A DNA stretch of 64,000 bases from Obrimoposthia wandeli (Eukaryota): NCBI GenBank assembly GCA_977020255.1, contig CDROCS010000752.1, positions 62,001 to 126,000 on the forward strand. Reading direction: 5' to 3'. The notes beneath the pieces are model-generated. The model did not search any database. It was not told the DNA's origin and saw nothing but the letters and a program-made list of their open reading frames with translations. Within the stretch, counting starts at the first letter, position 1, and each line of letters starts with the position of its first letter. Below, in pieces: positions 1 to 31,521 of the stretch. The translations under genes were made by a program, and so were the position numbers.

Positions 1-448
1 TAACATAGTTTATTCAATTTAAACTATTAATAATTATTGAGGATTCAAAAACAGTTTCTTCAAAATATAACTCACGTCCTTACTAGTCCTTCTAAGCGTT
101 TAATATTTTAATAATTTTAAAGAAGTGTAATAAACTACTTAAAATTGTATAATACAGTATTTTAGGATTCTTATATCTTATCAATAATATATATCATTAG
201 CAGTAGAAAGTACATTTATATTAAAGGTTTAGAAATATAAACGTGTTTCATAAGATCAGTTTAAATTGTTTTATTACTTCAAAACATATAAGAATTGCTA
301 CAATAATTTGTATCAATTCAAACTTTTATATATATTTTAGATATTAGTTTTATATATTTAATATTTACAAAATTGGGGCTTTAATAGGATTGTAAGTATA
401 TTATAGTTGTTATCTTTAATTGATTTTTCAAGACTCATACTCTTGCAC

Positions 449-955
449 ATGTTGACTTCTTCATCATTAAAAAGAGAATTCGATAATGAAGACGACTTGA
501 CAATTGACGATGACGACGATAGATTATTTGTCGGTTTATCCATAGATCTGAATTATGAGTCCATTTTCCCGGACACTCCGATGTCTAGTTACAGCGCCAG
601 TTCAACAAGTATCAGTGACATGAATTTCTTGGAGGACTCTGTGGTAAACTACGACAATAGCTGCAGCAGCAATAGTAGCAATTTTGTAATTAGTGATGAC
701 GATCTGAGGGAAATGTCTGTGAAGGAATTCAATAAGATAACAAAGTCTATGTCAAAAGATTCCGTTCGTTTGTTAAAGAAACGAAGAAGGCAGCTGAAGA
801 ATCGGATATACGCCAAAAGCAGTAGGAGACGGCGTGTGGAAGGATTTCGCCATGAAGACGTTCGAGACCGTCTGCAGCAGCTGACGGCGGAGGTGAGCCA
901 GCTGCGGAGGGAAAGAGACTTTTATAAAAGAATGGTGGAAGAGTCCGTCAGTTGA
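449..955 (+). CDS. Maf-family bZIP transcription factor-like protein with acidic N-terminus
   Basis: ISDDDLREMSVKEFNK...LLKKRRRQLKNRIYAKSSRRRR...LTAEVSQLRRERDFYK matches the Maf extended homology region, basic region (Maf-specific NRxY) and zipper ending ERDxYK. First ATG is at 449. Possible 5'UTR intron 392-432 (GTAAGT...TTTTTCAAG, 41 nt). Confidence 0.9.
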   Translation: MLTSSSLKREFDNEDDLTIDDDDDRLFVGLSIDLNYESIFPDTPMSSYSASSTSISDMNFLEDSVVNYDNSCSSNSSNFVISDDDLREMSVKEFNKITKSMSKDSVRLLKKRRRQLKNRIYAKSSRRRRVEGFRHEDVRDRLQQLTAEVSQLRRERDFYKRMVEESVS

Positions 956-2871
956 TTTCAGTCGGGAGCGCTCATTCGTCTTCTACAATTATTAATCTGC
1001 ATTTGAGTTCCGTCTTGTTCTCTTTTCGGTGCTGCTGTGTCGTTGGGGGTGAAGTTGGCCTAGTTGTGAGGTTATTTTACTTTGTTTAAGGTTAATTTTC
1101 GTTTTTGTGGGACATTTTTAGCGTTTTTGTGCCAAAAACCTTTGAAAATAGGGAAAATTTTTCGATTAAAGAAATATTGGTTGAGGAATTTAGATTAGTT
1201 TGTTTTTAATGAATGCAAATTTGTTTTGAATATTCAAAAAGTATAAAAATGAGAAAAAAACTGTTAAACTAAACAAAAATATCAATAAAAATGATTTTAT
1301 GCCCAAAATTTAGCACATTCTTTGTTCTAATAATAAAATCTATGATTTATTTATATATTATGATGACTTATTCTATTTAAAAATAAAAAACTGAATGATT
1401 TTTACATAAAACTGTAAAAAATCTAATTTTAGACTTTCAGGAAAATTTAATTAATGAAATGGAAAATTATGAGTATTACAAAACAGTTCAGAATACTTTA
1501 AAGATATAAATGCAACTTAAAAGTCACACTAAGATCGGTCCAATGAAAACTGGAAAGGATTTAATCAAAAATTGGGAAACTGAATATGCTGTAACTATCA
1601 AGGAGAACAAATAAAATCCGAGAATATTTATCCAAAGAATCTCATTATAGTGCAATTTTGCACAATAAATGTTCAGTTTTAATGTCCCCCATATTTATAT
1701 AAACTTCCAGAAAGTGAGAATCCAAGTTCAATTACAGGAGCAGAAAGGACGATAGTAGAGGACTGGCAGCTCAGAGATTGTGTTTACCGTGGGTATGCGT
1801 ACAAGCCGTACCACAGATTGTCATAATCGGGGAGAAAGTGTAATAATAGTGAAATATTCGGAAGACACCTTGTTGTAGGATCGCAAAGATTAAGTCCATT
1901 TCTGTCAGAAGATAATGGTGAATTAATTGTGTGGTTGCATCGGCGCTGGGGAACCTTTTACGAATTATGAACAACTAGTTTTGTATGAATGGGATTGGCA
2001 AGTGAGGCCATGTATGAAAAAAGAGTTTCCATAAAAACCATCATTGTTTGGACTATGATATTTGTAAAAAGTGTTTGAAAGTCCTTTAAAGTTTTGATTA
2101 AATCACACATCAAGACGTTTTTGTTTAGAAAATCCTGTAGTTAAATACTCAAAGTAGCTGATCAATTATAATTATTAAAAGATGAAGCTCTACAGAAGGT
2201 CCTCGCATATTCAAAACCTTTTGTGGTGCTTGTCACTTAAGTTTGATTTAAAAAGACGCTCCTCTACGACTCGAGAACTCGGGCAAGCGGTCGTTGCATT
2301 GTAATTGTAGGTGCTCTTGTTGTAATAAAAAGTAAAGGTGACCAAGTTATTTTAGGATATACAAATAAATTTTAAACTATTATAAAGATCTCTGATTTCC
2401 ACTTTTGATAACTTCTCCTGTTAGTTTATACTGACCTTGCAACTTCATTCAACATTTCAACCTAATCAGTCAAGAATGAAAAATCCATTCCAACATGTCT
2501 CGTTTGATTATCTAAAATTTGAACATTTCTTTCATTACTCTACTGAGCTTGAAAGTCGCCTCACTTGGGGAAAATTAACGACATCCTCATTTAGCGATCC
2601 AAGCATTTGAAAAAAACATCTGAAGAAAATCCAAAGAATATAATATAATTTTGGAAAAAATTTAACTTTAAAACTGCAGTTGAAAATATCAAAATGTGTC
2701 ATTCATTACTTATGTTTCTTTCTTATAATTAAAGTACAATATATTTTAATGACTCTTATTTTTGTTGTTCATAGTGATTCTTTTTCTTTCTATTTTTGAA
2801 AAATTACCTAAATCTAAAAGTAGGCTGCCTCTTATCTGGGGGTCATACATTATTCTTTGATATATAATAGC

Positions 2872-3062
2872 CCAACACCCACCACCCAACACCCAACGCC
2901 CACCGCCCAACACCCAACACCCACACCACCCACACCAACCACACCACCCATACCACCCACACCAACCATACAACCCACACCAACCATACCACCTACACCA
3001 ACCACACCACCCACACCACCCCACACCTCCCCACACAACCCCACACAACCCCACACCACCCA
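2872..3062 (+). repeat. C/A-rich low-complexity tract with ~9-bp period (CCACACCAC/CCACACCAA/CCATACCAC)
   Basis: Directly visible, lies just downstream of a TATATAA at 2861-2867. Confidence 0.85.
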
Positions 3063-3064
3063 AA

Positions 3065-4207
3065 TTGATTTCGCTGTCCCAGCCGGAGAAAGTCCTCGCA
3101 CCAGACTCAGACGAGGAGCTGTTCACCGATGACGTACCGTTGGATGGGGAGGAGGACTTGACTCCATTCATCGACGAATGGATACAGCCAAGTATCGGAG
3201 CCCCAGGAGCCAACGATTCGATGGTGGCAGAATTGGACGAGGACGAGTGGCACCTGTTCACCGACGATTGGGATGGTCTCACTCCCTCTGCTACTCCAAC
3301 TCCGAAAGCGGATAATACAACGCCTGAACCATTCAAAAGGCCGAAATCTCCGATACGTGCTGTTAGGAGAATAAAAGCGACGAATGAGGTTAAACCTCAT
3401 TTATTTTAAATGTTTTTTAATTTCATTTTCAGAAACTTTAACTGGATTTGGCACCGTCAGTGACCATGGCGGAGAGGCTCATAGAACCGCAGTTCTTGGC
3501 GAGTCAATGCAGCCAGGAGCTGCCAAGGAGTGAGCTCCGATACCTAGCGTCTCCAGATAATTTTAAGGTAAATTATTTAGATATTAAATTTAATAATTCA
3601 CATAGATGGAGAACATTCTCGAAGAGGCGATGCCTATTCAACCGGTGGATAGGAAGCAAGCGGGAGTTAAGAAACCGTAACGCCATCGAGTCAAAACCCA
3701 CACGGGATTAGTCCACCGTCAAGTCAACGACGCCTGCAGGAGACATCAAATTTGGCCAGGGCTTGGGAGACTGCATCTCCAACAATCAGCCAGAACTTGA
3801 AGAGGGCCTGGGATGAAGCTGGATTGGACGAATTCCTGGCGGAACTGGATACACCGGCAATGCTTCCAGATTCGCGAGGGAAACAGGATGTCGTCTCACG
3901 CCAGCTTCAGCGTGAGAAGGAGGAGAAACAGAAGAAAGCCTCACGGAAGAGGAAGAGGACTTCTATGTCGGGGCCATCAACATCGGTTGCACCTCCTCCC
4001 AAAAAGTTGCGGCAACTATTGCCAAAACCTGAGGGAAGGACAATTGCTGTACAACAACCGGTGAAGCCAAAAAAGAAACCGGGCCGGCCAAAGAAGAAGG
4101 AGCCAGTACCGCTTTCTCCAATAATACTTAGTCGAAGGGATTTCGATGAGGATGATCCCAATGATGACTTTGTAAAGATTTTTAAGAATATAATTTATAA
4201 AAATTAA
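3065..4207 (+). pseudogene. Three-exon accessory gene: acidic/aromatic N-terminus, basic C-terminus with AT-hook-like KPGRPKK; one nonsense, one frameshift
   Basis: GC-rich exons are separated by AT-rich GT-AG introns 3389-3432 (44 nt) and 3568-3605 (38 nt), both phase 0. In-frame TAA at 3439 and a frameshift near 3670. Start codon not located. Confidence 0.7.
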
Positions 4208-4425
4208 TTTCATGTGTTTTCTTCTTAATATTTATTTTTAAAAATATTTAAATTTAGAAATATTAAAATACTATCTTTAAATTTATTAGGTTTAAATGCA
4301 ATGATAAGTTATAGATTTATTAAACTCTCATTTGATAAATAAAAATATATCATTTAATTGGATTAAAACATATCTTAAATTTATATATATAGGTTCAAAT
4401 TTATTAATATCTTCATAATTAAAAA

Positions 4426-4704
4426 ATGGAATTCATTAAAATGAAGAGTCTGGTAACGAAGATTGAAGAAAACATTCGGAGAAATGAGAAGAAAGGAGAC
4501 TTAAGAAAGAGGGTCCTCAATCAAAATTTGTATACTGCTGTCGCGACTGAGTGGAATCGTCGGGTGGAGATACAAGATAGGCTGCTAGCAGAACGACGTA
4601 GGGTTGTGGAGTGGAATAAGAAGATCGAAATGGAAAAGAAGGTGATGAAAAAGAAGAAAAGAGTTATATCGTCGAGGAGCAAGAAAGAAAATCCTCCAGA
4701 TTAA
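4426..4704 (+). CDS. Small basic coiled-coil protein with SERTA-like motif
   Basis: Intact 92-aa ORF. SLVTKI...DLRKRVLNQNLYTAVATE resembles the SERTA consensus SLxKL...LRRSVLIxNTLRxIxxE. Family assignment is tentative. Confidence 0.6.
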   Translation: MEFIKMKSLVTKIEENIRRNEKKGDLRKRVLNQNLYTAVATEWNRRVEIQDRLLAERRRVVEWNKKIEMEKKVMKKKKRVISSRSKKENPPD

Positions 4705-4819
4705 ACCGGAAGAGGGTCTTTCTACAAAAAAATAAATGTTTGATTATTATTTTATCTATATTGATTATGTTACATAACTGTCTAAATATAAACAAATTTA
4801 TATATAATGTTTTTGTAAG

Positions 4820-5041
4820 ATGGATAATAAAAATTGGAATAAATTATACATTAAATTATCTCCAGATTTAATGGAAGATTATAAAAAAAATTACTTTTCA
4901 GAAAATGATACTCTGGAAATTGTTGGAAATAAAATATGTAAGTTAATTTCGAAATATTTAGGTATGTTTACATTTAATATAATTTATTTAATATTCATAG
5001 GAGAATTGACAATATATACCAATCTTAACATGAAAGACTGA
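4820..5041 (+). CDS. Hypothetical Maverick protein with an in-frame 39-nt intron; 3' end probably damaged
   Basis: ORF track 73 aa. AG|GTATGT donor at 4962 and CATAG acceptor at 5000. Confidence 0.45.
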   Translation: MDNKNWNKLYIKLSPDLMEDYKKNYFSENDTLEIVGNKICKLISKYLGMFTFNIIYLIFIGELTIYTNLNMKD

Positions 5042-5129
5042 ATCCTGAGTTCTTTGTTATTTTAATAAATTTTTGATTAATGGTTATTTTCGTATTAAAC
5101 AACGGGATTTGCTACAAATTTGTGTAATT

Positions 5130-5523
5130 ATGCAGGAATATATCATAGATTTTGAGGCTTTCATTAACAAAAATGGAGATTATATTATAAAAGAATTATG
5201 TATTATGGATGTATGCGACGTTTTTCATCCATTGCATTTCATATTTCAAATAGATATCCCATTTAAAAGTTTAGATTATAAGAAAAAATTTACTAATTTA
5301 TATCTAACTAATTATTTTCATTTATTATTTTGATATTGAAAATGGAATTTTTTATGTTTTAGATGAAATGGATGGCAAAAAGTATAAGAATTTTAAAAAA
5401 TATTTTCCCAAATTGAGGTTTAATACTTTAAATATTTCACCTGATCATCTATTAAAAATTCCACGAAATATTTGCTGTCCATATCGTAATTATGGTGACC
5501 ATTGCGCATATAAAAAATGTTAA
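5130..5523 (+). pseudogene. DEDD/DnaQ-like exonuclease-fold protein of the type seen in Mavericks, frameshifted
   Basis: MQEYIIDFEAF...YIIKELCI (D-x-E-x-F...I-K-E) and C-terminal CCPY...DHCAYK motif, with intervening stops/frameshifts. Confidence 0.6.
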
Positions 5524-5705
5524 AGTCTATCTTATTATTACTTGACATGTAGATAAACAATTTTTCTAATTCATAATTTTCATTCAATTACAAATAATTC
5601 TTTTGATTGGAGGAATAAAAAATATTTTTTCGACCATTTAACAGATAAACAATCCTTCTCAATAAAATTCAATTTTTTCTAAGAGCATGTGTGCATAAAT
5701 TTTAG

Positions 5706-5713
5706 TATATAAA
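5706..5713 (+). promoter_or_regulatory. TATA box upstream of spliced pPolB leader
   Basis: TATATAAA about 40 nt before ATG 5754. Confidence 0.45.
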
Positions 5714-5753
5714 CAAACACTTTCTTCATTAAAATCCCCGACTATTTGAAATA

Positions 5754-6536
5754 ATGACTATGGTAAGAATCTATATTTATTATTTCTTTATTAATATTTA
5801 TTTTTAGATTACGTGTAACCTGTTTCCAGCATATTGTGGTGCTTCGGCTCCACATGGAGGAGAGTCCTGCATGGAGATAATGTCCGCCTACTATCGGACA
5901 AAGTCTCGCAGGCTTCAATTCTTCGTCTGCCCTTCTGCAGAACAATGGAGGAGAAGGACTTTCGAAACTTCTTCGGTGAACATCGAGCTCACCTATCCTG
6001 TTTCACGGCCAACAACAAGAAGAGGGATATCGTGCAATTGGTGCGAAATTCACAGGTCGCTCCAGCTCCTGCTCCAATTCCAGTTGCAGTCGATCAACCC
6101 TTTTACGGTCCTGCGATTGGTCTCCTGTCTCCTGATTCTGCACCATCCACTCAAATGAATAACAATGAGTGGATGAACGACATCTCCCAAGAAGATTTTG
6201 AGATGGAGCAGTGGAGCGACAACTGCTGGTTGGAGACCACCGAGAAATCCGATTTCGTCGAGTTCACGAACGACAGCTGGATGGATTCTGTCAATGAAGA
6301 GGACTTCCAACCAGCTACAGTTGGATTGCCTTCATTAGGTACTTTTTTATTATTATTTTAGTGATTATTTTTGAAAATAGTAATTATATATACTTTCTTT
6401 TTTTTTTATTCAGGAAATACCGTGATACAGCCGTCGTCCGCTACGATAGCTATGCATCCCCCATCGCGAGTGCCTACGCGCCTTAGAGGTAATAATTTTA
6501 AAAATATATATTTATTTTTTAATATATTTATTTCAG
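5754..6536 (+). pseudogene. Spliced 5' exons (9-nt micro-exon, Cys/His-rich then acidic-Trp exon, short exon) joining in frame to the pPolB reading frame
   Basis: Introns 5763-5807 (45 nt, GTAAGA), 6339-6413 (75 nt, phase 1) and 6489-6536 (48 nt, phase 1). Splicing 6338 to 6414 joins ORF 5834 to ORF 6371 in frame. A 1-nt frameshift near 5933 restores CPFCR. Confidence 0.6.
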
Positions 6537-9500
6537 CAGCATCATCCTCTACAACAGCCGCTTCTTCATCGGCAATGCCAGTGAATACCTCAGCTACTCC
6601 AACTTCAATTGCAGCATCTACAACTGCAACTGTATCATCATCTGCGGCAACACCACCAACAGCAGCCCCTTCCACATCACCTGCGATTGCCTCAACATCG
6701 ACAGCATCACCAATAGCAGCACCTTCAACCTCAGCTGCGATAAATATAACTAGTTGTCTTCCCGTTCAATTAGAGGGAGTTTTGTCAGTGACTGTAGGAA
6801 GAAAGAGGCGAGGCCAATTTCTTTATAAGGTCCCACCCAAAAAACGTAGAGAAAACGGTGCTACTATAGAGTATCACCTAAATAATAAATATGTTATAGT
6901 TAAGGTGCCATTAGAAAATGAAATTTTATTAAACGTAGGTGTAGATTTAAATATTGAAAGTCTTTTAAAATCAGAAGTGACTAAATTAGGACAGGCTAAG
7001 GTTCAATTTTGCGCAACAGTGCAGTTTAAAAATGTCAATGAGGAGACTAAAACTTGGGTAATTTCACATAAAGCAACTGTCTTCTATGATAATTTTGTAA
7101 CTGAAATTGGAAGAAACCTAGATGAAAGAATTGCTAATTATAGTGAGTTAAGTAGTGGATGGACTTTAGTTAGAATTCACGATCTTAGCTTTGTTCTAAC
7201 TTAGTTCACTGACATGATATATCTTTCGGGGAGTTAATACATTCCTTCACCTAGATCTCTTCAACTTTCACGTTCCATTGTTAACATACAAAACAGTGAT
7301 AACCTTTGCTTTCTGTATAGCGTGTTGGCCATTCTCAAAATGGATGTCATTACTGAGCATAGAGAGCGTGTCAGTAAATATACCCATTTTTAAATGAATT
7401 GCAGTATCATGGAATACATTTTCCTGTTAAATTAACTGCGATATCGAGATTTGAACACATTAATAACTTCAAATATAATACTGATATCCCAGTTAATGAA
7501 ACAGATGAAGAAATATTTAAAAATCCTTTTGTAGATGATTTTATAGGAGCTAAAATGAGGGGACTCAGGTCAACTTAATTTTGCTCGAACATAATAAAAA
7601 ATTTCATTATGCTGCAATTCCTAATTTAGATCGTTTTCTAAATTTAGATAATGGATCCTTACCGGTTAGGATAAGGTGTAAGTGGTGTCATAGATGTTTA
7701 CATGGATTCTGATCCGAGCTCTCTTACAGCAAACATCTGACATTATGTTCACTAAATCCTGATGACAATACGCTATATAGCATGCCTAAGGATAAGGATT
7801 TAAAATTCAGGGATTGAGCAAAATGCATACCCGTGGCATTCAGAGTGTATGCAGATTTTGAGTCAATTCTAGCATTGCACGACCAGTATGAGAGTATTCA
7901 CCTACCGGCTTCGACAGGACTACTATTCTTAGGCCCCAATATTACACAGTATCATAAATTTTCCGGTCCAAATTGTATTTTAGATTTTATGTTAAAATTA
8001 GAAGAATTAGGAACAACAATTGTCAAACCGTGGTATGATCTCAATGCTCATCAAGCAATGATCATGACAGGCATAGACTGGGTTAACTTTAATTCTTGTA
8101 GATTATGTTATTTGTGTGGAACCCAGTCTAAGTTAGTCAGAGATCACGGTCATGTTACGGGGCGATACTTGGGAGAGGCGTGCAACCTCTGTACCTTAGC
8201 CGTCGTCTCCCTAAAAATCCACGCATTCCCATCGTGTTTCATAATCGCAAAGGATATGATTTGCATCATATACTTAAATACGCGTTGGGTACATTAAGCT
8301 CTTGGGAAATTTCATGTATACCTCAAACTTCAGAGAAATATTTATCTTTAACTGCATATACTGAATTCTGCAGTTTAAGATTCATAGATTATCTGCAGTT
8401 TTTGAGTGGGTCTTTAAAAAATGTAACGGCATCTTTAAATGCATGGCCAATCACACAGTCAGTGTTCCCAGCTTCTGTTAATGATAAGGGATTTTTTCCG
8501 TATAAATTTGCGAAAACCTTTGCAAATTTAGAAAATACAACTGAAATCCCACTCATAACTGAATTTGAGGGTGTAAGTCTTCAAGACTATAATGAGGTCC
8601 GTACATTTTGGGCGAATAATTGTCGAAATCTTCTAGAATATATGCTTTATTATATGAAGTTAGACATTTATCTTTTAGCTGATGTTTTAGAGTCCTTTCG
8701 TGTAAAATCTTTAGCAGAAGATGGGCTATATCCCATGCATTTTTTAGGTTACCTGGTCTTTCATGGGCAACAGCAATAAAAACACTTAAAATTAATATCG
8801 AGTTATTGCAAGATCCCGCGATGTATCAAATGTATGATTATGGTATACGCGGTGGAATGACTTTTGTCAACAAACATCATGTTGTCAAAAATCAATCCAC
8901 GGAGATTCTGTACATCGACATTAATAATTTGTATGGGTGGACGCTTACTCAACCTCTACCTCATGCCAACTTTATGATGAGGAAGAGTTGAATAAGTTGA
9001 TGACAGATTTGGCTACAGTTGATACAGTTTCATCAGACGTCGGCTATTTGGTTGAGGTTGACTTAACAATCCATCCCAATGTGCATGATAAATTAGATGA
9101 TCTTCCAGTAGCGCCTGTTCATCAATGCCCACCTAATTCAAAGGTTAAGAAATTATTGTTAACCCATGAAGACAAGTTGAATTATGTTGTGCATTGGCGG
9201 CTTCTTCAATTCTACTTAAAGTTGGGAGCGAAAGTTACTCGAATTCATCGTGCTATAAGCTTCAGTCAAAACCTTTTTATTTAAAGACTATATTGAGAAG
9301 AATTCTAGAAAACGTAATTTGGCCACTAGCAAATTCGATCGGGATTTTTACAAGTTAAAAAGTAATAGTCTCTTTAGAAAAGCTGTAGAGAACTTGCGGA
9401 AACGTATTTGTCTACTGTTTTGCAATGATGAGCGTAAACTAATAACATATACTAGCAAGTACAACTTCAAGCGTATTTTTACAATTGCAGCTGACTTGGT

Positions 9501-10113
9501 AGCAGTGTTATTAAGAAAACAGAGTATGTGTCTCGATCGACCGAGTTATATAAGTCAAACGGTTTTAGACATTTCTAAACTCAGAATGTACGAGCTTCAA
9601 TACATAGAATTAGAGAAATATCGACAAGAATTCAATTGTGAGATCAAATTCGCAGCTGGGGACACGGACTCTTTCTTTTTAGAATGTAAAAATGTTAGTT
9701 TAAATAATCAAATATTACCAGCAATGTTTAGAGACAACTTACTAGATACCCATGAATATCCCGCTAACCATCCTCTACACTCTATGAGTTTAAAGGATAT
9801 TATCGGGAAATTTAAGGATGAAAGCGAGGGACAGGTTTCGTATGATGATTGTATTTTCCTACGCCCTAAATGCTACAGTTTACATTCATCTAATAATACA
9901 TATTCAATGAGAGCAAAGAGTGTGGGAAGAAAAAATCTTACACATGAGGCCTACCGGAACGTTTATAATACTGGGGGTATTGAAAGCGTTGAGCAAACTA
10001 GATTTATTTCAAGAGCCCATCAACTGTATTCCCATAAATCAACCAAAATCGTCTTGAGTAGTAATGACGACAAGCGCTTTTGGGTAGAAAAAAACGCTAG
10101 CCTGGCTTATTGA
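6537..10113 (+). pseudogene. polB: Protein-primed family B DNA polymerase (pPolB), multiple stops and frameshifts
   Basis: SGW; NIQNSDNLCFLYSVLA...HYAAI (vOTU-type Cys and His boxes); C2H2-like finger; YADFES exonuclease motif; EndoVII-like CYLC..VRDHGHVTG; FHNRKGYD; KGFFPY; polymerase motifs DINNLYG, KLKSNSLF and GDTDS; RPKCY; DDKR. Confidence 0.95.
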
Positions 10114-10392
10114 CACTTCCGAATTTAAACAGTTTTCATTTTTTGATTTTTTTAGTTTAGTTTTCTAAAATTTTAGATCCCTATGGCACCTTGACTCTAA
10201 CATTTTGTTATTTCAATACATTTTTTAGTATGGACCTTATCTTTGCTGACAGATTTCATTGTGATGTTGTTTTTAATAAATGTATTAAAAAAAAATCGTC
10301 TTATGTCTTTTATTATTTTACCCTTATATTTTTTTAGGGATTTAAAAAATAATTCAAAATAAAACATTTAAAATTTTTATTTTTATAACACA

Positions 10393-10774
10393 CTAATCGT
10401 TTTGCAACGATAACCATAAAATACATAAATGTCCACAGTTTCTCGTCGCATGATCCTGATATTGTATTTTGTTGTAAAATACTCTTCTTCGTCCTTTTTG
10501 AATAGTTGAAACAGGTTTGTGTGGATAATACATTGCAAGTGGATCAAATACGTTTATTGTCCACTCTCTAACATAAATAGATATCCAATGTTCTCCCAGT
10601 AAATTCGAAGTATGAGTATTGATAATGTAACCTCCAGATTGAAAAAATGGGATCATATCAATTGGATAAACTCCATTGAATTTATCACCCAGGACCTTCT
10701 CTGCTGATTCTTGTACTTGTACTGAACTAAATAAAAATTAATAAATATAAATTTTAAAAAATGTCTTACTTCAT
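10393..10774 (-). CDS. Adenain-like cysteine protease; 2 exons (10774-10770 and 10726-10393)
   Basis: GEHW, FDPL, QYQD and NCGHLC catalytic motifs. ATG AA|GTAAGA...TTTAG|T TCA splices (43-nt intron) to MNSVQVQESAEKVLGDKFNGVYP in frame. Confidence 0.9.
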
Positions 10775-12000
10775 TCTATAATAATACAGTTCTGTTTTTT
10801 ATTGAATTGTATTTCCGAATCAAACACTCCGTAAATAAGCACCGTAGTACAATGTATTAAAGCTGCATTGAACTTAATTTCTATACGTAACTTTCCATCC
10901 TTTGGTAGTTGGCATTGGTTTATATCAAAGTCTGGTGCCAAAACAAATGTGAAGAAGGAGCAGCTGCTTTTAAACTCAGTGAAAGAAATACCATTATTTA
11001 TATTTTTATCTAGTTGGCCCAAATTCCGAATAATAGATTGCGTATAAGCCAAAGCATAAGCGTTACCTTCGAAATCTGTTTTATATGTTTCGCGATAATC
11101 AGTATTTCTTGAAAGTGTCACTGAACCTACATTAAAATTATCAGATTGAGTTGCATCTGTCGTATAATTTCCTAGAAACTTTGCAGTTTTTTAAAAAGAA
11201 ATTAAAATGAATTTCGGTAATCTTACATCACCAAAAATTTGATTCTTATTAAAAGCTTGTGTACCCGTACCTAAAGAGTAGGATATAAGTTTAGTTTCTC
11301 TTATAGGATAACAAGCATTGTTTTTTTCCATTCCTATATTTTGTGTCATTAAAACTGATTGCTCCGTTTTAACTCTTTGGACATACAATTTTGCATCTAA
11401 AATATCAAGTCTAGGTTTTAGAACGTCTGTGCTTATCAAAGAAAAATTCCATTTATTACGTTTCAAACGAAGATGTACATTAACACCCGGAATTAAATAT
11501 TTCGGTTGTTCAAAGAAATTCAATCTGAAAGACCCACACATTTCGTAAGCTTTAGAACCTGCAATCCATTCTTTGGAAGTTGCAACTGTTTTATCAATGG
11601 TTGCCAAATTAGTATTTTGAGTATCAGTACTATAATTCAAAAGACTTTCAATCAAAGCTTTATGAGCATAGGAAGAATTTCCACCTTCAATTTTGACATT
11701 ATTAAGAGTAACAATGGCATCATTAACTAAAGAATTAAAGAGATAATTTACAGGTGTTACATCGGCATTTTCTTCTAAATTAGTACCATCCCGATTTAAT
11801 ACTTTTATTTGAACATAAAGCAAAGTATCATTCAAATCTAAATACTCGCTATTGGAACCATTAATATTAAATTCTAAATCGGTTAAAGTGGTTTCTGAAA
11901 CTGAGTTAACTAGAAATATTTCTTCAAAGGAAGCATTATCTACAACTACTTGTGGAAGTGGTTTATCAAAAATACACAATTCGGTTTTGGCACAACTCAT
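10771..12000 (-). pseudogene. Double jelly-roll major capsid protein, one in-frame stop at 11191-11193
   Basis: MSCAKTELCIF...(C.KSELDLF-like), LDLNDTLLY, YLIPGVNVHLRL, FVLAPD, G.LRIEIKF. ORFs 11191-12000 and 10771-11121 are in the same frame. Confidence 0.9.
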
Positions 12001-12037
12001 TTTGCAAATTGTGTTCCTTCAACTTTCTTACGTTTGT

Positions 12038-12373
12038 TTATATTGATTTTTTGTTTCTTTTACGTTTAAATCCACTACCTCCTTGGCTTTTATTTGATTT
12101 ACGTTTTCTAATCAAATTAGCAACTTCAGGTAAAACATTATCAAGTTCATCAAGCGCATGCTTCTTAAAAGTTGGTATTAGTTTATTGTCATTAGATGAA
12201 AGGTAATATTTTCCTAATTTTGATATAAATCGCCCGAGTCTCTTTAAAAGAGGAAAGGCAAATCTACCTAATGTTCTAAGCCAGCCAGGTCCATATTGTT
12301 TATCAACAAAATATGGTAATTCTCCACCTTGTTGACTTTGACTATAAGCTTCAATTATTGCCGGATTCGCCAT
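12038..12373 (-). CDS. Basic virion core/membrane-active protein (pVI/pVII-like) with QxGG motifs and an amphipathic helix
   Basis: QQGGELPYF..QYGPGWLRTLGRFAFPLLKRLG, basic tail, and typical position between mCP and MCP. Confidence 0.7.
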   Translation of the reverse strand: MANPAIIEAYSQSQQGGELPYFVDKQYGPGWLRTLGRFAFPLLKRLGRFISKLGKYYLSSNDNKLIPTFKKHALDELDNVLPEVANLIRKRKSNKSQGGSGFKRKRNKKSI

Positions 12374-13409
12374 TTTGTTTTCTTAAATGTATTGTTAAAC
12401 TTGTCTTAGCCCCGTACGTGAAATCTATTAGTTGTCCGGAATCATCTCTAATATTTACTTCAATATTGTTTATAGAAAAGAAAGCAACTGGAAGATACAT
12501 TGGTTGATCTATATGCATATCGACAACGTCCCCACATTTAGTTTCATTTTGAGAAATCCATATTGTTCTCAAAAGTGGAACTCGTTGTCCTCCTACAAGC
12601 GTTGATTCTATTAATTTAGTATAAATATATAAATTATTAACAAGATTTAAAGGTTTTGCCTTATTTTTAGCTTTTATGGTTTTAATTGTATGGGTTTCAA
12701 AGGTATTTCTGTTTAAACCAAGGTTTTTAGTGAGTTTATCATCAAAGGAAACCCGTGTTATGCTGCTCTTTACCGCAAACGTTAATTTATCATTTAATGT
12801 TACACATTTATCCAAATATCCACTACATTCCTTCTGTATTAATTTACATAAATCCACTTCACTATCTATTTTATAATCTTTTAAAAGCTTTTTCAGTTCC
12901 ACTACAGTCTTTGGTCTCATTTCAAGTAACAACACTTTTGCTACTCTACCAGGAACATTTCTAACCGATTTAGATGAAACTATATCCCGTTTATTACTAG
13001 CTACTGTTTGTTCACTATCAAAACTAAATAGAAGAGCTTCTTTTTTAGATTCAATGTTTATTTTAATAACTTGAAGATATTTTAATCGATTTTTAAATCT
13101 GACTTTGTTATTTTCAAATATTACTTTCACTTCTTTATCTATACAATTGCAATAGAATTGTCCTTTACTATCAAACCCGATCACAACTTCAGTTGTTTTT
13201 TCATGATCAACTTCTTTTGTAAACGAAATATGTGAGTTTTTTTTAATAGTAATTGGAGAATATTAAAAAGAAAATTCTGTTAAAGCCGCTTCCCATTCTC
13301 CTTGGAGATTTATAGGATTTTCCCAATCGATAATATAGCTACTAGCGTAATTATCTGGTTGAGTCTTCGGACATCCGTTACTAGGTAAAACCATATACAT
13401 AGACTTCAT
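12351..13409 (-). pseudogene. Minor capsid protein (penton-like single jelly roll), one in-frame stop near 13263
   Basis: N-terminus MYMVLPSNGCP..QPDNYAS...GEWEAALTEFSF and C-terminus LYIYTKLIE..VGGQRVPLLR...PMYLPV...IEVNIRDDSGQLIDF...LTIHLR. The ATG overlaps the integrase stop (ATGA). Confidence 0.88.
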
Positions 13410-14431
13410 ATTATATTAGATGCTGATATCCAAGTTGGATCTGAATAACCATGCCATTTAACATAGTATTGTTTATGTTTACCGGCACCCATAGATTTTA
13501 ATATTTTTTGAATACGGAAAATTTTAGGTTTATTTGATATTACTTGTAGTTCTTGCTCGTAAAATTTACCGTGGACGATATTTTTGTCAGCATCTTTAAT
13601 AGTATACATTATTGGATTACTCTTTTGATCAATTTTACTTATACAAAATATTTCATCGCTCCAATTCTGATCAAAGTTTTTAAATGGAGTAGAGCTAATT
13701 TTCGAAATTCGAACATATTCGTTTTTCTTATATTTAGCTTTTTTAATATTTTCTTTTTTATTCCTCTCCATCCAAATATCCATAGAGTTTTTATTAGTAA
13801 CATCAACAGGTCTCATTCCCTTGAGACCTCTATATTCAGAGTGATTATATGGATGTATTATTTTAGGTAAAACTTGGACCCATTTTTTATTTCCTTCTTT
13901 TGTGAAATACTTTTTTATTTGTTCTCTTAAAGTAAGATTAAATATTTCTACTACTGCTGTTTTGTACTGTGAAAACACAGAGTAGTGATTTATATTATTT
14001 TGTTTAAATAATTATTGAACTTGCTTATTATAAAATTCTTTTCCTAAATCAGTTTGCATATTTTGTGGAATGTTCTCTTTTAATATCTCTTTAATGGCTT
14101 CAAGCATAGCTATTGAAGACTTAGCTTTAACTGGAATTGCACGAGCAAACCTGCTAAATACATCAATACATGTTAAAATATATCGATATCCCTTATTAAT
14201 GGAAGAATATGGGATCATCTCCATCAAATCCATTTGCCATAAATTATTAGGACTGCTGGTTTTGTAAGCTCTAGTCGGAAACCTTCTTCTCATCGACATG
14301 TTCAGACTGTAGGCTAACTGGTCGCTCAGCCATTTCTGCATTTTCTTGTAATTTTGTTTTGTTCTTTTTGCTAATTTTGAAACTCCGGTGTAGCCAATTG
14401 GATCTTTTGGATTGAACCATATCTTCTCCAT
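13406..14431 (-). pseudogene. int: Retroviral-type (rve) DDE integrase with C-terminal chromodomain-like region, one in-frame stop at 14012-14014
   Basis: WQMDL, IDVFSR, QTDLGKEF, VVEIFNLTL, YNHS, YYVKWHGY. Both ORF halves share one frame. Confidence 0.93.
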
Positions 14432-14489
14432 TACAACAATTTGAATATATAGAAAATTTAAATTTAGGTAAAGAAGGGTTAGCACCCAT
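14271..14489 (-). CDS. Small ORF with N-myristoylation (MGxxxS) and Cys-Cys motif, overlapping the integrase start in another frame
   Basis: MGANPSLPKFKFSIYSNCC..., 72 aa. The first 19 codons lie outside the integrase ORF. Confidence 0.4.
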   Translation of the reverse strand: MGANPSLPKFKFSIYSNCCNGEDMVQSKRSNWLHRSFKISKKNKTKLQENAEMAERPVSLQSEHVDEKKVSD

Positions 14490-14517
14490 ATCTTTAGCTG
14501 ATTTTTGAATTAATTGT

Positions 14518-14865
14518 TTATGAACGTGTTGCAGCTATAATACTACTGATAATTGAAGCAACAACTAGAATAACAGCCCCTATGAAACCACCATTATGTT
14601 TAAGAATAATATTTCGTTTCCTTTTTTTACTTTTTAAATTGGCAATATCTGGAAGAGTTTTTCTATATTTCTTTAATATATTTTTACGATTTCCAACTTT
14701 TACTCGACCCAAAACTATATTATACAAAACTTCCAATAAATCATCTACAACAAAAGATGGAAATGCTTTAAGAATAATCATTCTCTTATGAGAAGAGGCT
14801 TTGACTAAAGCTTTAAAATAGGGTATGTTTCTTTGTATTTTTTTCATTTTAATAAAAAGGTTCAA
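14518..14865 (-). CDS. Adenovirus pX(mu)-like core protein: basic body, GG-F cleavage-type site, hydrophobic C-terminus
   Basis: ...KRKRNIILKHNGGFIGAVILVVASIISSII. The likely ATG is slightly downstream of the ORF start. Confidence 0.75.
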   Translation of the reverse strand: MNLFIKMKKIQRNIPYFKALVKASSHKRMIILKAFPSFVVDDLLEVLYNIVLGRVKVGNRKNILKKYRKTLPDIANLKSKKRKRNIILKHNGGFIGAVILVVASIISSIIAATRS

Positions 14866-14877
14866 TTTGAATATTGT

Positions 14878-15017
14878 TTATATTCGAAGCCATTTAAGTT
14901 TTTTTTTATTTCTAACTACAGATTTGATTAATTTTCTCACTTCTTTTTTCTTAATGATTATTTTTTTGATTTCTTAGGCTTTGCTTTACGTTTTACTATC
15001 AACTTCGTAAAAGGCAT
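14878..15017 (-). pseudogene. Very small Lys-rich protein ending KWLRI, frameshifted
   Basis: MPFTKLIVKRKAKPKKSKK / ...VRNKKKLKWLRI* read from the minus strand in two frames. Confidence 0.35.
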
Positions 15018-15081
15018 TGCAAATTAATTTTTTATAATTGTTCTCTATTTGTTTATAAACAGTTACTCCCTTAGAATTAAA

Positions 15082-15672
15082 TCAGTCTGTTAAAACACGT
15101 AAATCATCTGGGCAAGCTTGTGTAAAGTCAATAAATATATACCCATGTGCTTGTTTAGCAGCATTGTGGAATGAATCAACTAGAAAGTTCTTATTTTGGG
15201 GAAGCGCCTGTCTGGCCACAAAATCTACATCTGTTTGATCTCTAGAATTTTTAAATAAAACTAAGTAATGTATATTAAGATTTCTTGTTCTATGGTGACC
15301 TCCTTGGTGAAAATGATTTTGAGTGATAAATATAACTGTTACTTCACGATGTCTTGCAATCTTTGTAAATAAATTATTAAAGTCCGATTCCTTGTTAGCT
15401 TCCTGATACAAATCATCAATTATTATTACTTCTTCGTTTTTCAATCTTTCACACCAATTTGCATCAAATCCTTCAATAAATTGTATTCCCTTAAACTTAC
15501 AAACTTCTGTTTTGGTTAATCCGCTTTCTCCTCCTCCACCATGATGCCAATAAATATTTTTGAAACTAGATTTGAAAAGAGATTCATTTTGCAACAATTT
15601 ACATACGAAATGTGTCTTTTCACTTCCACTGGGACCAACTATTTGAAATACAGCATTATTATTTAGCTCCAT
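15082..15672 (-). pseudogene. A32/FtsK-like DNA packaging ATPase; Walker A mutated (GPSGSEKT), 3' end damaged
   Basis: IVGPSGSEKT, Walker B IIIDD, KIARH, IFITQN, YLVLFKNSR, GYIFID. Confidence 0.9.
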
Positions 15673-15709
15673 TGCATATACTCTTTCATTTTTAATATTG
15701 TTTATATTG

Positions 15710-16051
15710 TCATAGAAGTTTCCTTATTGAAATGTACAATGTTAGAGCTATTGTAGATGAAATACAAAAATTAATTAATGAATATTTGACTATAATTTTA
15801 TTTATTTGTGTACGATTTCTAAATTCTCGAATAACGTGTGATCTAACCAATATTTCAATGTTATCTCTTGTTATATCATTATTTTTTAATTCTGATAAAA
15901 TTTCTTTACTCCTAATTTTTCCAGAAAATATTTCGTCGGAAAGACGATCCACTTCATTGTCTCTATTTATAGTATTATTTATTTGAAACAATAAGTTTAA
16001 ACGGGTTTGTTTATAGAAAAGATAACAAGATGTAATAAGATATATTTTCAA
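15710..16051 (-). CDS. Hypothetical protein with C-terminal hydrophobic helix
   Basis: ORF track 113 aa ending YSLINFCISSTIALTLYISIRKLL. True start uncertain. Confidence 0.4.
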   Translation of the reverse strand: MKIYLITSCYLFYKQTRLNLLFQINNTINRDNEVDRLSDEIFSGKIRSKEILSELKNNDITRDNIEILVRSHVIREFRNRTQINKIIVKYSLINFCISSTIALTLYISIRKLL

Positions 16052-16510
16052 AAATCAAATCAACGATGTCTGGATAATCAAAATTTTTCAATCCCAATAT
16101 CATAACTTTACCACTGGAAAATATATTTACACATAGCGGTATAAACTTCAAATAACTGAGAGCAGGAAAACTTTCTGGTTCAAACATGCATTCTTCTTTC
16201 ATTTTCTCTGCAGTTTTAAAAAGATTTATCTGTTTCCCAAGATTAGCCGAAATTGTGATTGATTGTATTGCAGTGATTCGAATTCCAAATGGTAAATTGA
16301 ACCCAGGTATTGGTATTTTGCATCCCATAACACGACAATTTCCTAAAAGAATTCAATATGAAATAAAATAAAAAATTAACCTGTAGGTAAAATAACAACT
16401 GTGAAATTGTCAAACTTTTCCACATATTGTCTCGGCTTCCATTCATTGAATGGTAAGTACGAAACATCATCTTCTGTTCTACCTTTATGATTTACATTTA
16501 CAAGTTTCAT
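16011..16510 (-). CDS. TATA-binding protein (TBP)-like protein; 2 exons (16510-16381 and 16342-16011), 153 aa, uninterrupted after splicing
   Basis: IQSITISANL...LFKTA..MFEPESFPALSY...VNIFSSGKVMILGLK is a TBP repeat. A 38-nt GT-AG intron (16380-16343) joins VVILPTG|NCRVMGCK, the end of the first repeat. Confidence 0.85.
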
Positions 16511-16683
16511 TAGACTAAAATTGTATTCTGTAAAATCTTCTTTATATATGTCTGAAACTGCTTTTTTATTGCACGTTTCTTGTAATTATCTTGCAAACCT
16601 ATTATAATTGGATGATCTTCCAATCAAATTTGATTTTTAATATGGATTTAACCAATGAGATTCATGACTTTGTTAGAAATTAG

Positions 16684-16721: not shown

Positions 16722-17204
16722 ATGCATTCATATCAAAGACAATTATCAACGATGGAGGATAGCCAACGGATATTAAGCGGTGACGAAGATTCGGAAATGT
16801 TTGAAGAATCGGATAAGGATATGTATGAAGAAGTGAAACAATATTTCAAATACAAAGTCAGATTTTTGAAGAAGGCTCAACTGATTGCTTTAGTAAATCA
16901 TGTGACAATTGAAAGAAGAAAGTTCAGCTACTATCTATCAAATATTCAAAAACCAGATTTTCAATATCTTAAACAGAAAGTTGAAAAGGCAGTTCCGAAT
17001 TTTACTTTCAATAATAACGAATTTTATATCCGAGGACCCGATGAAGCATTTCTAGATGACTATGAAAGATATGTTGATATTGATGCATTTCCGAAAAAGA
17101 AGCAATGGACTGTAACAATTCGACTTTATGGTTACAAGAAAGATGAAATGGGGACAAAGTTGCCTATGTGGAAAATTGAACGTGCTCATATTTCTATGTT
17201 TTAA
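16722..17204 (+). CDS. Hypothetical protein, acidic N-terminus; possible OB-fold ssDNA-binding protein (paralog 1)
   Basis: Intact 160-aa ORF. The C-terminal WTVTIRLYGY...PMWKIERA motif is shared with the downstream gene. Confidence 0.65.
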   Translation: MHSYQRQLSTMEDSQRILSGDEDSEMFEESDKDMYEEVKQYFKYKVRFLKKAQLIALVNHVTIERRKFSYYLSNIQKPDFQYLKQKVEKAVPNFTFNNNEFYIRGPDEAFLDDYERYVDIDAFPKKKQWTVTIRLYGYKKDEMGTKLPMWKIERAHISMF

Positions 17205-17348
17205 CTTTTGCGTGTAATAAATTGTAATCGGTTTTACTATGTTTCTTTCATTTGGCAATTTATAATCAGTTTTATTTTTTAAATATTTGTATCTTATATG
17301 TATTTATTTTATAAACATTGTATTTTTAATCAGTTTCCTTATTTTAGA

Positions 17349-17753
17349 ATGAATAAGAGATGTGTAGCAAATTTTTATTATCCAGAAATAATTTTAAAAG
17401 GAAAACTATGTAATATATTAAAGAAGCATCAAATTATACGAGTTATGAATCCTGTGAAAATATCAAAAGTGGAGAATAAATATCTCATCAAAATTTTAAC
17501 AACATCTGATATTGATCAATTGAAAAATATTTTGGGATTTTACATTCCTGATTATGTATATGAAGGAAATTGTTTCCAGCTTGAAACTGATCCCAGTCTG
17601 GATTTTAAAGATGATCTAGGATAATTGATTGCTCCAATTCTAGATGAAGAACTATGGAATATCTCAATACGTCTCAATGGATATTTTGCTGATGACGGGA
17701 AAATGCAACCTCTCTGGACTTTGAGTGAAGCCAATATGTTATTTTATGTTTAA
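17349..17753 (+). pseudogene. Tandem paralog 2 of the 16722 gene; one in-frame TAA at 17622
   Basis: Read-through of the stop gives WNISIRLNGY...PLWTLSEA, matching paralog 1. Confidence 0.65.
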
Positions 17754-17930
17754 TAAATGTTTTGGAAAATAATTTTGACTCGTATTTTGTTTTTTCTCCT
17801 CTAAATTATATAGATCTATTTTTCTCTTATAAATCTGACCTAAATATTTAACATGTAGTAATCTAAAATCTTTCATAAAAATAGTAGTAATATATTTGAA
17901 ATCTCGTCTGCGATAAGCCGCCGGGGTCAA
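17739..17930 (-). other. Short hypothetical ORF next to the right terminus
   Basis: ORF track only, with no ATG start. Confidence 0.2.
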
Positions 17931-18053: not shown

Positions 18054-18140
18054 ACACACATACACAAAATTTCACTTCACACACATACACGAAATTTCAC
18101 TCCACACACATGCACGAATTTTCACTCCACACACATGCAT
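18054..18140. repeat. Subterminal 25-bp tandem repeat (~3.5 copies, CACACACATRCACGAAATTTCACTC) in the putative Maverick TIR
   Basis: Directly visible. Confidence 0.85.
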
Positions 18141-18197
18141 GGTTTTAAAGGACATTAGGAAAGGGGGTGTGGATTAGACAGGGCACATCCACCTACT

Positions 18198-19475: not shown

Positions 19476-20175
19476 TGATTTGGTTTTAAAGCCATATGTT
19501 CAAGTAAGCCGGGATACACCTATAACTTTTATTTTTATTAATTTTATGAGCCTAATGAAACTCCCACCTGATCAAAAAATAATCATTGAAATTTCTGATG
19601 ACATACCACAAAACAGCTCATTGCTTTTGACTATTTCTTTAGCCACCTTGAATTATATAGCAAACAACTGAATAGGTCGACCGGAACTATATACATGAGA
19701 AGTATGTATAAGAGTCGAAAACAACAAGAAATAGGCATCCCAAGCAAGGTATTACAATTACATTTAAAGATCAGTTCAAAAAGTAATCAAGAGCTGAAAA
19801 TATGCATGGGACCATTAAATTAAAATTGACTATATTTATAGTCCTTATCAAGAACATATTAGAGAAAAGCTGAAATCATATAAATAAAAGAAAAATTAAT
19901 TAATATCTAAAAAAGAAAAGAAACAAGAAATAGATAAACTCCAAAATAGAACTGATTAACCTCAGATGACCTGACTGACTATATTCCTGTTTTTAAATTT
20001 ACTAAATAGCTGCCATCTCTGGCAGCGCGTGATTAATCACAAGAATTATTAATAATAGAAGAAACTGCATCAACGTCAGAACCAATAGGGGAGAATTGCC
20101 TCTAAATTCTCCAGAAAAAAACAAACAAAAAACAACTCAGTGTAATATGGGTATAATAAATAATCAATCGCTCAT

Positions 20176-21145
20176 AATCACTCATCGATGACAAATCACT
20201 CATCAATGACAAATCACTCATCAATGACAAATCACTCATCGATGACAAATCACTCATCGATGACAAATCACTCATCAATGACAAATCACTCATCGATGAC
20301 AAATCACTCATCAATGACAAATCACTCATCGATGACAAATCACTCATCAATAACAAATCACTCATCGATGACAAATCACTCATCGATGACAAATCACTCA
20401 TCGATGACAAATCACTCATCGATGACAAATCACTCATCCATGACAAATCACTCATCCATGACAAATCACTCATCCATGACAAATCACTCATCAATGACAA
20501 ATCACTCATCAATGACAAATCACTCATCGATGACAAATCACTCATCAATGACAAATCACTCATCGATGACAAATCACTCATCGATGACAAATCGTAAATC
20601 CGATAAATTAATTTTCGTACTAAAATATCCTCTAAATTTAATCATCAAAATCATCAATTTTATTTTTTTAAGGCTCGTTATTTTTTTCAATAACTCATCA
20701 ATGACAAATTACTCATCGATGACAAATCACTCATCAATGACAAATCACTCATTGATGACAAATCACTCATCGATGACAAATCACTCATCAATGACAAATC
20801 ACTCATCGATTACAAATCACTCATCAATGACAAATCACTCATCAATGACAAATCACTCATCAATGACAAATCACTCATCGATGACAAATCACTCATCAAT
20901 GACAAATCATTCATCCATGACAAATCACTCATCCATGACAAATCACTCATCCATGACAAATCACTCATTGATGACAAATCACTCATCGATGACAAATCAC
21001 TCATCAATGACAAATCACTCATCGATGACAAATCACTCATCGATGGCAAATCGTAAATCCGATAAATTAATTTTCGTACTAAAATATCCTCTAAATTTAA
21101 TCATCAAAATCATCAATTTTATTTTTTTAAGGTTCGTTATTTTTC
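20176..21145. repeat. 18-bp satellite (TCATCGATGACAAATCAC)n in two blocks (~23 and ~20 units), each followed by the same ~100-bp AT-rich segment
   Basis: Blocks 20176-20593 and 20693-21052. The non-repeat segment starts at 20594 and again at 21053. Confidence 0.97.
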
Positions 21146-30971: not shown

Positions 30972-31521
30972 TTCATACGTTTCGTACTTTCTTATTGTGT
31001 AACCGGAAATAGCAGGAAATATTCAGCTAAATATTATTAATTAAATGTAATCAATTTGGACACACTTTACAATGTTCAATAAACGAAATGCACAATTAAA
31101 TTCAATTAAATTTAGTTTTAAAGACACACGTTCGAATTCGATGAAAACAATTATGAGAAACACACGCACACGCACACAAAATAGTACATCTATTGTACAT
31201 TGCAAATTAAAAGTTAAAATGAAATTTTGCAATCTGCTTATTCATTTATATCATTGACATTCTGATTTAAAACTAATTCAATTTAAAACAGTAATAAAGG
31301 TTTAAATTTATATTTTTATTTACCAATAACATTGACTTTATATGTAAAATTTTTAAAAACATTTTTTATGAAATTAAAATTTTGAATTACAAATATTATT
31401 GCTAAAAAATTATTTAAATCTTCAGTATGTAATTTTATAATATAAATGTTTAAAGTAATACAATGACAAGAAAATACAACATTAATATAAAAATAGATAA
31501 ATCTAAACCTTTCTACTGGAT

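Follow-up and report, generated by a model that had tools for sequence, protein, structure and literature searches.

The 64,000-nt stretch of DNA analysed here (the window; coordinates are positions within it, and negative values lie to its left) belongs to a 1.35-Gb AT-rich animal assembly and carries the remains of a Maverick element. Four open reading frames (ORFs) resembling nuclear regulators lie within or beside this element, and all four are present as originally predicted: a bZIP gene (449-955), an acidic gene (3065-4207), a SERTA-like ORF (4426-4704) and a TBP-like gene (16011-16510). Our analysis centers on the last of these, which encodes a predicted compact TBP termed mini-TBP in the following, and on a TATAAAC box found upstream of most packaging and capsid genes of the element and its relatives. 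At the level of sequence, the pairing of mini-TBP and box is a real pattern; it may well represent a late-gene switch.

A Maverick-encoded mini-TBP

The window Maverick, a member of family B, is degraded. Its PolB, capsid, integrase and protease ORFs are all in pieces and its left terminal inverted repeat (TIR) is absent; the complete Maverick core of the original prediction was thus not borne out. Together with its relatives, the element shows the hallmarks of a Maverick/Polinton of the adintovirus type, i.e., PolB, an rve integrase, an A32-like ATPase and TIRs with a 6-bp target-site duplication (TSD). The following features of the element are relevant here:

2869..3061: remnant of the left subterminal CCACA repeat, matching the left arm of copy C691 at 84% over 202 nt; a deletion junction follows at 3062 and the left TIR is gone
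5755..10113, plus strand: fragmented region of protein-primed PolB with spliced Cys-rich/acidic N-terminal exons, homologous to the intact PolB of loci L118 and L076
10393..15672, minus strand: fragmented structural and packaging block, assigned by profile matches and tblastn to intact relatives
16510-16381 and 16342-16011, minus strand: the two exons of the mini-TBP gene, with an inferred GT..AG intron at 16380-16343
16540..16548, minus strand: canonical TATA box TATATAAAG of the mini-TBP gene, assigned from sequence
18090..18197, minus strand: right TIR, ending at 18197 and followed by GTCGAT and RNase H remains of a long terminal repeat (LTR) retroelement

The PolB fragments are 36-40% identical to the intact PolB of L118 (PF03175, E 2e-21). 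The packaging block comprises genes for a protease, the major capsid protein, a pVII-like protein, the minor capsid protein, an rve integrase with chromodomain, a small ORF starting with MG, the PW protein and the A32-like ATPase. Integrase (PF00665, 41.4 bits) and packaging ATPase (PF04665, 27.9 bits) both score above the cut-off and Chromo was also matched, while the protease match is weak (PF02902, E 0.05). The capsid, PW and pVII labels derive from position, homology and recall, not from fold comparison.

The TBP-like ORF reaches 44.5 bits against PF00352 (cut-off 22.9), in agreement with its original assignment, and lies on the minus strand as a gene of two predicted exons. Its product is predicted to be a compact, two-lobed TBP saddle: an AlphaFold2 model employing 35 sequences (pLDDT 94.4) aligns to human TBP over 144/144 residues with a Z-score of 13.6 and a root mean square deviation of 2.4, the next non-TBP match having a Z-score of 6.8. 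Between positions 12 and 61, the model is devoid of helices of at least four residues; TBP has one short and one long helix per lobe (PMC5809078). Residues F39, F98, F114, E96, P24, M47 and N112 are found in 35/35 sequences, P99 in 34/35 and R45 in 33/35. Three of the four intercalating Phe residues are conserved (35/35, 35/35 and 34/35), and the N-lobe loop position is occupied by K in 26/35 sequences. Lobe 2 keeps both Phe residues, the Pro and the acidic stirrup (E/D94 and E96, each 35/35, as judged from sequence only). In lobe 1, one Phe is retained, the loop Phe is lost, and the near-invariant Q26, R45 and M47 are new. Moreover, S69, T71 and N112 stand in for canonical residues. In the window copy, one lobe-1 position that is otherwise invariant in the family is substituted.

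Mini-TBPs measure ~145 aa, have 43 short homologues and occur in at least four Maverick families of the assembly, where a first look returned 19,768 candidates. Families A and B share the intron; family C contains an intronless form of 144 aa. Among metagenomic sequences we obtained 98 matches and kept 80 loci; a Maverick core gene lies at 35/80 of these and at 22/30 of those of at least 3 kb. The ratio dN/dS was 0.08-0.25 in the 4/15 pairs with finite dS, with 5/15 pairs left out (one sequence in the wrong frame) and 6/15 saturated. In a phylogenetic tree, the mini-TBPs form a clade apart from the host TBP genes (96/94; long branches). The host itself has two divergently oriented TBP-like genes on contig C238 (L009/L010) and two intronless, divergent TBP paralogues (L012/L013; C60, C1092). 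Accessory genes near or within Mavericks that encode a mini-TBP (L118, L135, L092, L113, L098) include KilA-N, phospholipase A2-like, C2H2 finger, E2 ubiquitin-conjugating, RING and leucine-rich repeat proteins.

Two promoter classes in mini-TBP Mavericks

To compare promoters, we collected the 80 nt upstream of homologue-anchored ATGs from own-genome copies and the 80 metagenomic loci. Removal of regions more than 70% alike reduced the set for the ATPase, PW, capsid and exonuclease-like genes from 87 to 60. The motif ATAAAC stands 18-60 nt upstream of 21/25 ATPase, 9/11 PW, 10/12 capsid and 9/12 exonuclease-like genes, compared with means of 0.5-1.0 per gene and maxima of 3-4 in shuffle controls. 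Its position is mostly -31 to -41 from the ATG. Taking the four genes together, the motif is found in sense orientation in 49/60 regions and in antisense in 0/60; GTAAAC occurs in 1/60 and TATAAAA in 0/60. It is also present in 34/42 metagenome-only regions and in 8/12 regions of a distant clade whose ATPases are 25-38% identical. The motif is preceded by T or C in 52/56 sites and followed by A in 49/56. In the window itself, the box is found at the following positions:

15699..15706, minus strand: TATAAACA box, 33 nt before the ATPase ATG
14875..14882, minus strand: TATAAACA box, 34 nt before the PW ATG
14515..14522, minus strand: CATAAACA box, 32 nt before the small MG-ORF that precedes the integrase
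13470..13477, minus strand: CATAAACA box, 67 nt before the minor capsid ATG
12035..12042, minus strand: TATAAACA box, 41 nt before the major capsid ATG

Of the integrase, pVII-like and protease genes of the window copy, some have a box farther upstream or before a small upstream ORF.

The mini-TBP genes show a different pattern. TATAAAC precedes 0/51 and ATAAAC 2/51 of them, while a canonical TATA box is found in 22/51 (shuffle 2.7) and CCAAT in 12/51 (shuffle 4.0). Inr-like sequences occur at 37/51 mini-TBP genes versus 13/60 structural-gene regions. Canonical TATA boxes stand before the TBP gene itself and also before other putative early genes. It had been proposed that the element's own TBP possibly reads the TATA boxes of its genes. 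Our data support a TBP that reads element promoters; its target is probably the TATAAAC of the structural genes and not the canonical TATA.

We considered whether the box might be a host Forkhead site (RYAAAYA) unconnected to mini-TBP. ATAAACA fits the Forkhead consensus, and the A that usually follows the motif agrees with such a site. Against this, the lack of antisense copies and the single GTAAAC among the 60 regions are not what a Forkhead site would suggest, and the narrow position together with the preceding T or C fits a core-promoter element. We therefore regard a Forkhead site as highly improbable.

Element boundaries and the Maf, acidic and SERTA-like genes

The remaining three genes of the original prediction, together with a pair of ORFs at the right end, are located as follows:

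1..2600: unique, likely host DNA island that extends ~1.5 kb to the left of the window and has no other genomic match
449..955, plus strand: Maf-family bZIP gene of 168 aa with an acidic/Ser-rich N-terminus and a putative intron in the 5' untranslated region (392-432)
3065..4207, plus strand: remnant of an acidic, disordered, spliced accessory gene of family B, recognized by comparison with other copies
4426..4704, plus strand: small basic helical ORF, possibly a remote SERTA/IER-like hairpin, in high copy and in family B only, with a TATA-type upstream region
16722..17760, plus strand: two paralogous ORFs of a conserved family that usually adjoins mini-TBP, the second being broken

The ORF at 449-955 is indeed a Maf protein, with extended homology region, basic region and zipper, 61.3 bits against PF03131 (cut-off 22) and MafB as the closest solved structure (E 6e-13). 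The Maf gene lies outside the Maverick element, contrary to its suggested inclusion. The window copy starts at ~2869, to the right of 955, and is without the TIR, the promoter and start of the acidic gene and ~305 bp at 3703; no TIR is present between -19,570 and 18,090. For comparison, we employed seven family-B copies picked by their match to window 3060-4720. Two of them, C6351 (16.0 kb, TSD ATTAGA) and C6665 (TSD TGAATT), have both TIRs and a matching 6-bp TSD, and the left TIR is visible in two more. In these copies the left end of family B lies 0.85-1.45 kb before the position matching 3062. The intact C6351 and C6665 begin ~1.1 kb before the acidic-gene match and contain no Maf gene. 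All four genes do not co-occur in other copies: Maf was found in 0/7 by blastn and tblastn, the acidic and SERTA-like genes in 7/7, these copies having been chosen by that match.

The Maf DNA has a single match in the whole assembly, and PF03131 has 4 matches genome-wide, versus the 19,768 TBP candidates mentioned above. Homologues of the Maf, acidic and SERTA-like genes were each found at 0/80 metagenomic mini-TBP loci, most of which are short contigs. A word search for Maf relatives returned none at E<=0.001 and is uninformative. The Maf island (about -1500 to 2600) sits between two different truncated Mavericks. In sequencing run X1, possibly the source sample, it corresponds to a single unitig of 5,746 nt that begins at the family A junction and whose length implies an end at about window 2900; its depth of 39 compares with sums of 2-7 x 10^5 for the adjoining Maverick DNA, although depth does not equal copy number. 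Judging from the intact ORF and the single copy, Maf is likely an ordinary, functional host gene.

Maverick DNA is abundant in this genome. It makes up at least 26% of arbitrary DNA (50,154/192,208 nt in 20 stretches, L180-L199, which are not a random sample), a Maverick protein match occurs in 13/20 of these stretches, and the ATPase has 31,070 first-look candidates in the assembly. Maverick fragments likewise lie at a distance of no more than about 5-7 kb from the two other Maf-like genes. Given this abundance and the Maverick pieces beside the other Maf-like genes, the adjacency of Maf and Maverick is to be expected and needs no explanation. Maverick-driven genome expansion has been reported in Dugesia flatworms.

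A four-gene kit within one element, possibly a 37.9-kb composite between TIRs at -19,673 and 18,197, would still place Maf inside. Within 30 kb to the left, the TIR at -19,673 is the only other one; it faces the right TIR, is 81% alike to it over 114 nt, and has Maf between the two, and the acidic and SERTA-like genes are shared by all seven copies selected for them. The flanks differ (AATGAT and GTCGAT), however, so that this pairing has no TSD. Furthermore, the TIR at -19,673 belongs to a different Maverick family (A) with another gene order, and this element is truncated, breaking off in PolB at ~-2810. Together with the single copy of Maf and an adjacency expected by abundance, this leaves such a kit with next to no chance of being correct. 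A coordinated transcription module of four genes is likewise not borne out, since Maf is single-copy and found in none of the seven copies, homologues are lacking at the 80 loci, and families C and D encode the TBP without Maf, acidic or SERTA-like genes in the stretches read.

Both the acidic and the SERTA-like gene are family B-specific. The acidity of the gene at 3065-4207 stands, with 22% D/E in its first ORF; the gene itself is a remnant and its proposed AT-hook is non-canonical. Other copies show that its promoter and roughly its first 120-130 codons are missing and that ~305 bp are deleted at 3703. The hook reads KPGRPK, with PGRP or PARP in place of the RGRP core, and a strict AT-hook pattern was found in 0/6 left arms. 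The Rb-binding motif LxCxE of E1A-like/Oncoid proteins was also found in 0/6 left arms in the three forward frames. The fuller protein of the other copies has an N-terminus with two YID(L/I)(T/H)SQDS motifs (5/5), which resemble SUMO-interacting motifs (SIMs). These copies carry a promoter of the TATA/CCAAT/Inr type.

Regarding the SERTA-like claim, the ORF at 4426-4704 is present (14,557 candidates in the assembly), whereas a SERTA domain is not detected by Pfam. Three copies gave no match to PF06031 and a whole-genome search gave only sub-threshold noise; phmmer with this ORF found 0 relatives among 1.84 billion representatives. In the ESM Atlas, the nearest clusters are SERTA with scores of only 0.75-0.78, and 10/10 family matches share family or clan at a low recognition score. 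Helix 2 shows one mismatch to the published consensus and helix 1 fits poorly. A scan of 62 accessory ORFs, most of them taken from 107 representatives of metagenomic ORF clusters, gave no SERTA or bZIP match. We give a real SERTA-like homology somewhat less than an even chance and treat it as a lead only. If the likeness is real, recruitment of PP2A-B55 would be likelier than a role as transcription factor: SERTA domains and adenovirus E4orf4 bind PP2A-B55 (PMC11446282; bioRxiv 2023.08.29.555174). A pattern search for the host B55 sequence gave no match.

The first ORF of the pair at 16722..17760 is preceded by CCAAT and TATAAAAG, the second by a TATAAACA box at 17310. Upstream regions of this family contain ATAAAC in 3/16 and TATA in 2/16 cases, the starts being uncertain. 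A single-stranded DNA-binding protein (SSB) was considered for ORF 16722, as the model of the neighbour ORF in L118 looks like an OB-fold (ASFV CP312R, Z 7.2, pLDDT 71). We rejected this label because the L118 neighbour shows no significant homology to the family in the window and the Atlas yielded no match. The small ORF starting with MG (14271-14489, minus strand) overlaps the integrase start and is conserved across families, with its own box; it may be N-myristoylated. Short GT-AG introns were predicted in Maverick genes at 3389-3605, 5755-6537 and 16343-16380. The family A element at -19673 to -2810 (L003-L004) carries a BIR+RING IAP, a dual-specificity phosphatase, an exonuclease-like gene and a spliced mini-TBP; a family-B-like fragment is nested inside it. 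Elsewhere in the window, we found an 18-bp tandem array in two blocks (20170-21050) and two paralogous 315-aa ORFs in inverted arrangement, whose starts resemble signal peptides (30078-31022, minus strand; 38274-39218, plus strand). By eye, a 421-aa ORF (51643-52905, plus strand) resembles a hAT-type transposase.

A proposed late-gene switch and its relation to known systems

With a probability of roughly 0.62, we propose that mini-TBP is a late-gene switch that reads TATAAAC before most packaging and capsid genes, with host TFIID acting early and host TFIIB and Pol II being recruited. Host TBP/TFIID would first transcribe the genes with canonical TATA (plus CCAAT and Inr), i.e., mini-TBP and, in family B, also the acidic and SERTA-like genes. 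Mini-TBP would then bind TATAAAC, its conserved C-lobe reading TATA and its remodelled N-lobe accepting C at position 7. In TBP, the Phe pair of the C-lobe inserts at TATA base pairs 1-2 and that of the N-lobe at base pairs 7-8 (PMC3142196); by this geometry, the conserved lobe would face the unchanged TATA and the remodelled lobe the changed AAC-A. As the acidic stirrup is kept, mini-TBP would recruit host TFIIB and Pol II to the structural genes, and as the N-lobe helices are lost, it may escape regulators of the convex surface such as TFIIA, TAF1 or Mot1. The acidic, SIM-bearing protein and the SERTA-like protein are probably lineage-specific early host modulators outside this conserved switch, through SUMO binding and possibly PP2A-B55, respectively.

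Several points weigh against this proposal. We infer lateness from gene function, and binding, timing and the use of TFIIB are predictions; the lobe-2 mapping comes from HMMER alignments and the lobe-1 mapping was made by eye. Within 18-60 nt of the ATG, the box is rare at integrase (4/15), pVII-like (3/10) and protease (0/7) genes. No canonical TATA box precedes 29/51 mini-TBP genes, and TGTTTTA occurs in 13/51 of their upstream regions. The Cys-rich/PolB promoter, TATATAAACA, fits both classes. As the loci share descent, the 60 distinct regions do not represent as many independent origins. The TBP-less control is a single, distant element and not an animal Maverick: a polinton-like record of 19.8 kb (L201+L225) without TBP match, in which the box precedes 0/9 genes. 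Searches for TBP-less Mavericks returned 0 loci by capsid, ATPase and integrase and one by PolB in viral_contigs, one 3-kb fragment in genome_contigs and none in phage records; the sole TBP match in viral_contigs, L069, is without a Maverick gene. Finally, TATAAAC is one base off the canonical TATA, and host TBP may thus read the box.

In these mini-TBP upstream regions, for example at the metagenomic loci L073, L103 and L111, TGTTTTA replaces or accompanies TATA, and it possibly marks a third promoter class.

A reading of the box by host TBP leads to a different role for mini-TBP: host TBP or another host factor would use TATAAAC as a weak TATA on amplified templates, and mini-TBP would act as a decoy, either by sequestering TFIIB or by dampening transcription of the host. 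The retained stirrup (E96 in all 35 sequences), the missing fourth Phe and the missing N-lobe helices are consistent with a decoy, and TLF/TRF2, a non-TATA-binding paralog that sequesters TFIIA, offers a precedent (PMC3142196). Yet the concave face has not decayed, and the near-invariant N4, N6, R45, M47, S69, T71 and N112 suggest base reading; moreover, the strict C at position 7, with no TATAAAA among the 60 regions, is hard to reconcile with host TBP as reader. We consider the decoy unlikely, and the late-gene switch remains our preferred interpretation.

In its widest form, the proposal states that a widespread clade of animal Mavericks runs a true viral early-to-late cascade with one ~145-aa TBP, the smallest with re-programmed specificity (TATAAAC), which would evade host TBP regulators through its lost N-lobe helices and co-opt TFIIB, with family B adding a SERTA mimic that recruits PP2A-B55 like E4orf4. 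Promoters responsive to mini-TBP would then be spread through the host genome by thousands of copies. This we hold tentatively, at slightly below even odds. The mini-TBP/TATAAAC pair bears on how Mavericks time capsid production without an RNA polymerase of their own. If our proposal is true, the pair would be strong evidence of a regulated viral cycle in Mavericks; it would also mean that the herpesvirus vTBP strategy was invented independently here and that mini-TBP is a natural example of a TBP with altered specificity. One protein and one box make a directly testable hypothesis, and the box is useful for annotating Maverick genes.

The openly accessible literature that we searched gives no account of a Maverick TBP mechanism or promoter. 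Adintoviruses/MELD viruses share the core gene set (Starrett et al. 2021, PMC8502044) and have accessory genes of the IAP and Oncoid types upstream of PolB; the acidic gene described here differs in being without LxCxE. The Fig. 5 legend of that paper labels a 'TBP' for a MELD virus or related element without function, and the excerpts of its text and supplement text contain no family-wide TBP, promoter motif or mechanism.

Like SERTA/IER hairpins and adenovirus E4orf4, the ORF at 4426-4704 encodes a small helical protein with a K..VL..N pattern and SERTA neighbours in the Atlas, but it lies below Pfam detection and matches helix 1 poorly. The best viral fold matches to mini-TBP are TBP-like proteins of giant viruses (e.g., Heterosigma virus TBP and the ASFV B263R homologue; E 3e-8 onward), which are larger (186-500 aa) and 10-22% identical. 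Giant viruses with TBP-like proteins mostly have their own RNA polymerase. With cellular TBP and TLF (TRF2; PF00352), mini-TBP shares the saddle, the C-lobe motifs EPE(L)FP and IF(S)SGK and three of the four intercalating Phe residues; it differs in an N-lobe without helices and loop Phe, in invariant polar substitutions and in its separate clade.

The closest functional parallel is the viral TBP (vTBP) of beta- and gammaherpesviruses (KSHV ORF24, EBV BcRF1, HCMV UL87), likewise a TBP-fold protein in a virus that uses host Pol II (PMC12529657, PMC4893493). In both systems the structural genes share a TATA variant, here ATAAAC as opposed to the TBP genes with no TATAAAC, and the DNA-facing surface is more polar than that of cellular TBP (PMC12529657). 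In contrast, the whole 144 aa of mini-TBP are saddle, with no room for extra Pol II-binding or C-terminal domains, and mini-TBP keeps the acidic TFIIB stirrup that KSHV ORF24 is without (PMC12529657). Furthermore, the herpesvirus TATT departs from TATA at position 4, the mini-TBP box at position 7. Taken together, these comparisons suggest that mini-TBP likely works like the herpesvirus vTBP/TATT system without being a member of it.

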